A DNA stretch of 61,112 nucleotides, counting the filler, from Dugesia japonica (lineage: Eukaryota), in NCBI GenBank assembly GCA_001938525.1. It is 6 parts of 6 records of this genome, joined end to end, with 100 filler letters (N's around TTAATTAATTAA, not from the genome) between each part and the next. Parts side by side here need not be neighbours in the genome. Positions count along the whole stretch, not along the records: positions 1 to 10,629 come from MQRL01629447.1; 5 more parts are not named here. The stretch is one strand, 5' to 3'. The first letter of the stretch is position 1. Every line of letters begins with the position of its first letter. A program made the translations under genes and the position numbers. Under the pieces are notes generated by a model. The model saw only the letters and a program-made list of their open reading frames with translations, was not told the origin of the DNA and searched no databases. Positions 7,689 to 7,928 of this stretch are shown here, piece after piece.

Positions 7689-7928
7689 TTGCAATTATTG
7701 CGAGAATAATTGTTGGACATATCCATTGAAAGTTTTACAGAATTCATTAAAAAAAAAGCTTCGATCAAAATTTTTGTTTTTTTTATTGATGTTTGATAAC
7801 AAATCGATATTTCGACTTAGNCTTCTTCATGAATTGTCAATTTCTGAAGAAGACTAAGTGGAAATATCGATTTGTTATCAAACATCTATACAAAAAACAA
7901 AAATTTTGATCGAAGCTTTTATTTTAAA
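7689..7928. mobile_element. palindromic Penelope-pLTR-like element with hammerhead motifs
   Basis: Inverted arms about 7746-7928; ctgaaga-agac-taa-gtg-gaaa-tatc core; flanked by direct repeat aaaattaatcaa. Confidence 0.75.

Follow-up and report, generated by a model that had tools for sequence, protein, structure and literature searches.

Candidate ORF-less PLE-type pLTR insertions in Dugesia japonica whose inverted arms agree by copy

Introduction

The typical layout of a Penelope-like element (PLE) consists of an inverted copy beside the pLTR and a tail at one end, usually of 30–40 bp, and its cause is called undefined in PMC8557442. Self-priming was proposed in 2013 for Penelope junction palindromes (PMC3846280). 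The protein of the Anolis element Poseidon (PAc) is described as cleaving and extending both strands in vitro with unprocessed RNA, and two internal start sites of its reverse transcriptase (RT) bracket the tail (PMC11167929). Minimal hammerheads of metazoan PLEs have an extra base, a G10.1-C11.1 pair and a palindromic stem III, and are found as pairs on opposite strands; they vary greatly within a genome and occur mostly as solo motifs, which were read as truncated PLEs (PMC4209133).

A palindromic element of about 250 bp from Dugesia japonica (GenBank assembly GCA_001938525.1) is compared here with these systems. The window, meaning the whole stretch of DNA that was analysed, is 61,112 nucleotides long and joins parts of six records end to end. 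An earlier note made from this sequence had pointed out copies of the element whose arms mirror each other within a copy and differ between copies.

Materials and Methods

Copies were located by pattern and blastn searches of the window, which gave five copies in clear sequence and a sixth (copy F) that is putative. The arm alignment and tree took in the three full copies B, D and E, each from a different subfamily; copies A and C, which have lost their centres, were for that reason not included. Contigs of two DNA runs (X1 and X4) were aligned to positions 7560–7985 at a likeness of at least 80%. Candidate target-site duplications were compared by a scripted test with 30 cross-copy controls, in which the longest exact match was 8, and with 400 random pairs, two of which reached at least 11.

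Results

Six copies of the palindromic element

All six copies are built of a one-sided tail and two head-to-head arms, or of what is left or visible of these. The arm pair is complete in copies B, D and E, the centre is deleted in A and C, and the interior of F is hidden by an N gap in which a palindrome is presumed. The features are as follows.

1440..1542, minus strand: copy A; tail and collapsed 38-bp palindrome, the ribozyme-bearing centre gone between two GATC sites
7677..7688, no strand: copy B, left target-site duplication; 12 bp, identical to 7933–7944
7686..7745, minus strand: copy B, tail; about 57–60 bp, one-sided, terminating in a 9-bp hairpin
7746..7836, minus strand: copy B, tail-joined arm; pLTR-like unit reading leftwards, hammerhead motif 7802–7834 with C3 changed to A
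7837, no strand: copy B, centre of the head-to-head junction; 1 nt
7838..7928, plus strand: copy B, tail-less inverted arm; hammerhead motif 7840–7872, stem II broken at 7860
7933..7944, no strand: copy B, right target-site duplication; pairs with 7677–7688
17008..17176, minus strand: copy C; tail, left arm up to stem II, centre deleted, right-arm remnant of 44–46 bp
17940..18170, minus strand: copy D; tail 17940–17998, arm 17999–18079, spacer 18080–18085, inverted arm 18086–18170
21612..21876, minus strand: copy F (putative); tail fragment, gap of 222 N at 21648–21869, and 7 bases as at the end of the inverted arm elsewhere
60340..60354, no strand: copy E, left target-site duplication; 15 bp, one mismatch against 60616–60630
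60355..60615, plus strand: copy E; inverted arm 60355–60452, tail-joined arm 60453–60554, tail 60555–60615
60616..60630, no strand: copy E, right target-site duplication; pairs with 60340–60354

The copies of the earlier note are real; the one-sided tail, the target-site duplications and the copies at 1440–1542 and 21648–21869 had been overlooked. Copy E is oriented opposite to the others. Copy B forms an inverted repeat at 7747–7927, with arms of 90 bp around its 1-nt centre. Copies C and D belong to a subfamily marked by the tetramer AATT, and in D the hammerheads are damaged in both arms. The aaatataagct variant, which had been placed at 17011, lies in copy C at 17069 and is indeed mirrored, with its mate at 17159.

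The tail measures 57–60 bp and lies on one side only in all six copies. It is closed by a 9-bp hairpin in the predicted fold, and a second predicted stem surrounds the point at which the tail-less arm stops; none of 20 pairs in the tail showed two-sided change. The outer ends are the same in all seen copies. The centres are unlike: that of B is 1 nt long, D has a spacer of 6 nt on one side, and E has about 8 extra bases on both arms. No ORF was found within any seen copy.

Two further sequences resemble parts of the element. An isolated 37 bp at 32530–32566 resembles the outer end of an arm (blastn E 1e-5), has neither tail nor ribozyme, and may be a relic or a chance match. In three runs the most frequent loose end at 7729 is similar to the tail of copy A (1446–1530), which is taken as a second tail subfamily.

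Hammerhead motif

A minimal type I hammerhead motif is present in each arm wherever the centre survives. From the centre outward an arm consists of about 8 nt, a 4-bp stem I, CUGANGA, one extra A, a 3-bp stem II and GAAA, followed by a palindromic tetramer (ATAT or AATT), the cleavage base, a variable A-rich segment and a conserved outer 25–30 bp. A strict minimal-hammerhead descriptor matched once in the window, in copy E (60467), and not at all in 40 shuffles, which identifies the ribozyme core of the earlier note as a hammerhead. With a relaxed descriptor four matches were obtained, all within arms (four of six arms), compared with 0–3 in 40 shuffles. The sole intact hammerhead among the six arms is that of the tail-joined arm of copy E (60463–60495), in which the extra base at 9/10.1, the G10.1-C11.1 pair and the palindromic stem III were all found intact. 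The stem III tetramer is palindromic, as had been reported: copies B and E have ATAT, and copy D and the one arm of C that survives have AATT; a single two-base change separates the two forms.

Rfam gave no matches at gathering threshold across the window, and E-value scans of copies E and B returned generic hairpin models (mostly miRNA) below threshold and no hammerhead family. Folding of single arms produced no hammerhead fold, as is expected of a dimer-type motif. Since the paired ribozymes lie on opposite strands, a dimer within one transcript is impossible; read-through RNA would be expected to fold as a long hairpin.

The suggestion that the ribozyme fold is under selection was not borne out in these copies, where one arm in six is intact and the hammerhead stems gave no covariation signal above shuffles (249/500). 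Because of that single intact arm and of the opposite strands, selection on the fold and on the palindromic stem III probably acted in source elements and not in the present copies.

Two RNA runs, sampled to about 6% and 25%, yielded 54 and 1848 reads from both strands, 98% of which continue into unlike sequence, and no pile-up of read ends was seen in these samples. The reads look like read-through of other copies and are uninformative on cleavage.

Arm-to-arm identity

The three 22-mers named in the earlier note as lying next to the ribozyme core were found exactly at 7795, 18037 and 60401, and differ from one another at 5–8 of 22 positions. It had been stated that the opposite arm carries the matching complement in every copy. 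This is exact only for the segment at 60401 (mate at 60481); the mate of the 7795 segment (7858) has one substitution, and that of the 18037 segment (18108) a change of two bases to one.

Arm-to-arm identity within a copy is 0.88 in all three full copies (11–13 substitutions, 0–3 gap columns) and between copies 0.76–0.85 (12 pairs; 13–24 substitutions, 2–13 gap columns). The arms of one copy have diverged by about 10–12%, with differences at 25 of 263 aligned sites. When the six arms of B, D and E are aligned, the gap-free columns hold 13 minority states common to both arms of one copy and one common to arms of the same side; 11 mirrored columns were seen, versus at most about 0.5 expected from parallel mutation. 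The maximum-likelihood tree of the arms, which the earlier note had put forward as a check, grouped them by copy (bootstrap 84, 95 and 96), and all three by-side trees were rejected (AU p 1e-4, 3e-6 and 3e-6). This grouping supports the proposed derivation of both arms from a single template when the copy was inserted.

Two changes run by side instead: B and D carry A for C3 in the tail-joined arm (about 7830 and 18070), and C and D carry A for G in the inverted arm (about 17153 and 18147). Both are read as homoplasy, which is plausible at the observed rate of G/C change (12 of 64 sites). They would also be explained if whole palindromes were transcribed from a few palindromic masters and retrotransposed as units, the mirror having been made once per master. 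The identical outer ends of all seen copies agree with such masters, and as each subfamily has a single full copy, grouping by copy in the tree fits an origin per master and an origin per insertion alike. Against this stand the different centres of the three full copies and the probable poor quality of a 90-bp RNA hairpin as a template for RT. Arms like those of B are moreover abundant while the B centre is rare, with the proviso that hairpin centres may drop from short-read data. Retrotransposition from palindromic masters is considered improbable.

Mirrored variants and private changes

Ten of the 11 mirrored columns fall in one 36-column segment past the cleavage site, which holds only 3 of the 25 unmirrored substitutions (Fisher p 1e-5). 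The segment of copy B beside the ribozyme is common, with a summed contig depth (which is not a copy number) of 163000–217000 at 7785–7814 in X1; at position 7803, 32% differ from copy B. Copies C and D, which are independent loci, have AATT and the short spacer in common. From the abundance of the B segment and the states shared by C and D it follows that the mirrored differences between copies are mostly subfamily variants, older than the insertions.

Private changes behave otherwise. Among the 40 of 136 rows listed, the rare states of copy B at 7753, 7843 and 7860 occur in one arm only, with 90–97% of contig depth reading otherwise (97% C at 7860), and most private changes of B in these rows are unmirrored. 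One mirrored pair of copy B, 7791/7883, is rare in the family (about 1% and 7% of contigs). As mirrored states are mostly those of subfamilies, private changes of B are mostly one-sided and the arms of a copy differ, the two arms were most likely identical at insertion, made from one source template, and then decayed separately.

The earlier note had also allowed for homogenisation of the arms by conversion. If gene conversion or quasi-palindrome template switching acted after insertion, private mutations would become mirrored, and template switching is reported to homogenise the arms of inverted repeats (PMC8604942). The 7791/7883 pair would fit, as would a deficit of within-copy substitutions in the middle segment (3 of 94 versus 22 of 169 sites; p 0.008, or 0.03 after allowing for base composition). 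The segment was chosen post hoc, counting each multi-column event once makes the deficit smaller, and mutation is faster in G/C-rich centres; the deficit may come from the G/C-rich centre together with loss of copies with a perfect centre. Arms that still differ at the 25 sites, private states of B that are mostly one-sided in the rows listed, and mirrored states that C and D share and that are frequent among contigs all speak against homogenisation, which is regarded as quite improbable. Ongoing conversion is not needed, since one template followed by separate decay suffices, but it may have made a minor contribution.

Evidence for insertion

The duplication flanking copy B is exact over 12 bp and that of copy E agrees at 14 of 15 positions. 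Candidate duplications of A, C and D noticed by eye were rejected, because in the scripted test they were not above controls; the same test gave nothing above controls for copy F. Translation of either flank of copy E gives part of an RT remnant, and five identical codons stand on the two sides. The decayed remnant that copy E splits extends over 60100–60660, and its motif region appears by eye to be like the LTR-type RTs of the window.

Matching contigs numbered 19283 and 15046 records in the two contig sets, and the family is clearly abundant. A joint of 7676 to 7933 that skips 256 bp, as expected of an empty site, was present in four X1 contigs and one X4 contig, most likely from paralogues of the flanking repeat. 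The family has a sharp boundary at 7686, which is the commonest loose-end boundary of matching records. Summed depth in X1, which does not measure copy number, drops from 13661 at 7839 to 56 at 7835, and none of the contigs listed covers the whole B locus. The flanks of copy B (7585–7685 and 7933–7985) are themselves an unannotated repeat, with depth in the thousands versus 5–9 at 7560–7574.

Given the duplications in B and E, the empty site and the thousands of relatives in contigs, the element is a mobile insertion and not a fold-back artefact. An assembly or amplification fold-back could be imagined for a gap-rich short-read assembly in which no listed contig spans the B locus. It is hardly credible in view of the 11–13 arm differences per copy, the duplications that flank B and E, the recurring end points, and two X4 contigs that cross the centre with at least 52 bases on each side and, being about 13% unlike B, derive from other copies.

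A non-autonomous DNA transposon (MITE, foldback or Helitron-like) with a hammerhead-like string by chance would also be short, ORF-less and abundant, and could end in a hairpin like that of the tail. In MITE and foldback elements an inverted repeat stands at either terminus and the duplication is short and of fixed length; here one end is an unpaired tail, which leaves the inverted repeat terminal on one side only, and the duplications, of 12 and 15 bp, are long and differ in length. Helitron-like elements have a terminal hairpin and no target-site duplication; the hairpin is present here, but B and E have duplications. Both assignments were rejected, and the PLE-specific extra base, G10.1-C11.1 pair and palindromic stem III make a DNA transposon very improbable.

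Window setting and neighbouring sequences

The window is AT-rich (GC 17–34%) and gap-rich. It contains exons of a glutamate receptor, a kinase gene and numerous remnants of transposons. The following features were recorded.

17213..17437 and 19554..19925, minus strand: two ionotropic glutamate receptor exons (Pfam Lig_chan)
22056..23041, minus strand: protein kinase gene, with introns apparently of only about 45 bp
3711..4019, 10731..14383 and 52476..52934: fragmented LTR retrotransposon remnants (RT, RNase H, integrase zinc finger, gag zinc knuckle)
about 33000..50200, and 54152..54361: broken Polinton-like remnants, including a protein-primed DNA polymerase (49835–50131) and phospholipase A2-like pieces (41736–42122, 54152–54361)
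43691..44314: ORF without Pfam match, with what we take to be a Walker A-like string
16060..16149, 34263..34352 and 45048..45137: three diverged copies of a 90-bp coding-like segment, perhaps resembling a Bro-N domain
35..253, 20307..20654 and 27877..28098, minus strand: DNA transposon remnants (Transposase_1, DDE_1, DUF4817)
6090..6467 and 8785..9040: tandem arrays with units of 18 bp and 26 bp
10630..10729, 19926..20025, 29615..29714, 39981..40080 and 52231..52330: non-biological blocks of 44 N, 12 bases and 44 N, about every 10 kb, which inflate repeat-finder output

Copy D sits between the two glutamate-receptor exons and copy C just past the second, so that pre-mRNA would carry long hairpins.

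No PLE-type RT or GIY-YIG domain was found by Pfam in 208 of the 212 stop-free frames of at least 55 aa in the window, the other four being frames of the 18-bp tandem repeat at 6141–6473. The RT matches in the window adjoin RNase H and integrase remnants. Exact-pattern scans gave no relatives in viral contigs, metagenome contigs or prokaryote genomes.

Discussion

Proposed mechanism

The copies are best explained, with a probability of about 75%, as ORF-less insertions of the hammerhead-bearing end of a PLE pLTR made by target-primed reverse transcription. The priming and synthesis steps proposed here would account for the observed architecture, duplications, by-copy grouping and decay. An RT/GIY-YIG protein would be provided in trans, and the template would be uncleaved RNA with its 5' end about 8–17 nt ahead of the hammerhead core. 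Nicks on both strands, staggered by 12–15 bp, would give rise to the target-site duplication seen in B and E. The first nick would prime cDNA from the far end of the tail, an internal start, to the 5' end of the RNA. The second arm would begin about 60 nt further in, and for that reason would lack the tail, and the two arms would meet head to head. Both would carry the sequence of a single source (subfamily) and later decay independently, some copies losing the centre through palindrome-driven deletion.

Two routes to the second arm are considered within this explanation. Priming by the second nick, with another internal site as its start, is modestly favoured, and is put somewhat ahead of fold-back because the two start sites that bracket the tail in Anolis Poseidon fit both outer ends. 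Fold-back of the first cDNA is a plausible second choice, and agrees with the nearly symmetric centres of B and E and with 7791/7883, the mirrored pair that is rare. The earlier proposal that the inverted arm is re-synthesised from the element's own template, by fold-back or template switch, thus holds as regards one template at insertion, with fold-back as only one of two candidate routes.

It is rather unlikely that fold-back occurs at every insertion in this abundant ORF-less family, with RT errors written into both arms. The near-symmetric centres and the mirrored pair of B would then be expected traces of the process. If it were true, a new palindrome could seed the next round, and the thousands of copies would form a natural record that separates fold-back on one RNA from two-nick priming.

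Significance

The finding is unsurprising in that the architecture is already known and matching arms are predicted by any one-template model. Its value lies in an abundant, subfamily-rich, ORF-less family that offers many independent events for counting; each can be scored for concordance of its arms, for mirrored variants private to it and for its centre junction, and so large a family could help settle how the mirror half of PLEs arises. Insertions can be dated by the divergence between arms, in the way used for LTR pairs. Palindromes of this kind also disrupt short-read assembly, as in copy F, and would bring 90-bp hairpins into host introns, as in copy D.

Comparison with known systems

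No published by-copy test of arm identity was found in the literature searched, which was mostly non-subscription; none of the main text of PMC11167929 covered here analyses the arm-to-arm identity of inverted copies. The family described here resembles PAc in its two end points that bracket the tail, in an uncleaved ribozyme within the insertion and in its AT-rich targets (PMC11167929). The inner end point lies, as a further likeness, in the loop of a predicted stem-loop, for which no covariation was seen. The present family, unlike PAc, is known from DNA copies, without a protein.

The hammerheads agree with those of PMC4209133 in the 4-bp stem I, the extra base, G10.1-C11.1, the small palindromic stem III, the placement on opposite strands and the variability within a genome. 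They differ from the motifs described there in a stem II of 3 bp and in a distance between motifs of about 10–30 bp instead of 100–700 bp.

Non-LTR retrozymes (bioRxiv 10.64898/2026.07.22.740005) are likewise ORF-less, have a type I hammerhead and are described as kin to PLE pLTRs. Their units are repeated directly in tandem, so that a dimeric ribozyme can form, whereas the copies here are single inverted pairs with ribozymes on opposite strands. Assignment to the retrozymes was rejected, all copies being inverted pairs and tandem units being absent. An autonomous EN+ PLE was rejected as well, with no ORF in the seen copies and no GIY-YIG or PLE-type match in the frames scanned.

The closest likeness is to Pen2a and Pen3a of Adineta vaga, which are EN+ PLEs with head-to-head inverted pLTRs, a junction palindrome and a one-sided tail (PMC3846280, PMC8557442). 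Their target-site duplication is also long and variable, at 8–10 bp (PMC3846280) compared with 12–15 bp here. The present family differs from them, as far as they are described in these sources, in being abundant, in having no ORF or captured sequence in any seen copy, in arms that reach no more than about 17 nt upstream of the hammerhead core, and in a tail of 57–60 instead of 30–40 bp. A hammerhead, a head-to-head pair, a tail at one end and a duplication of variable length (in two of six copies) were all found, as in a solo inverted pLTR. Judged by sequence features, and with the defining ORF of an autonomous PLE absent, the copies are provisionally filed as ORF-less PLE-type pLTR insertions of the solo inverted kind.
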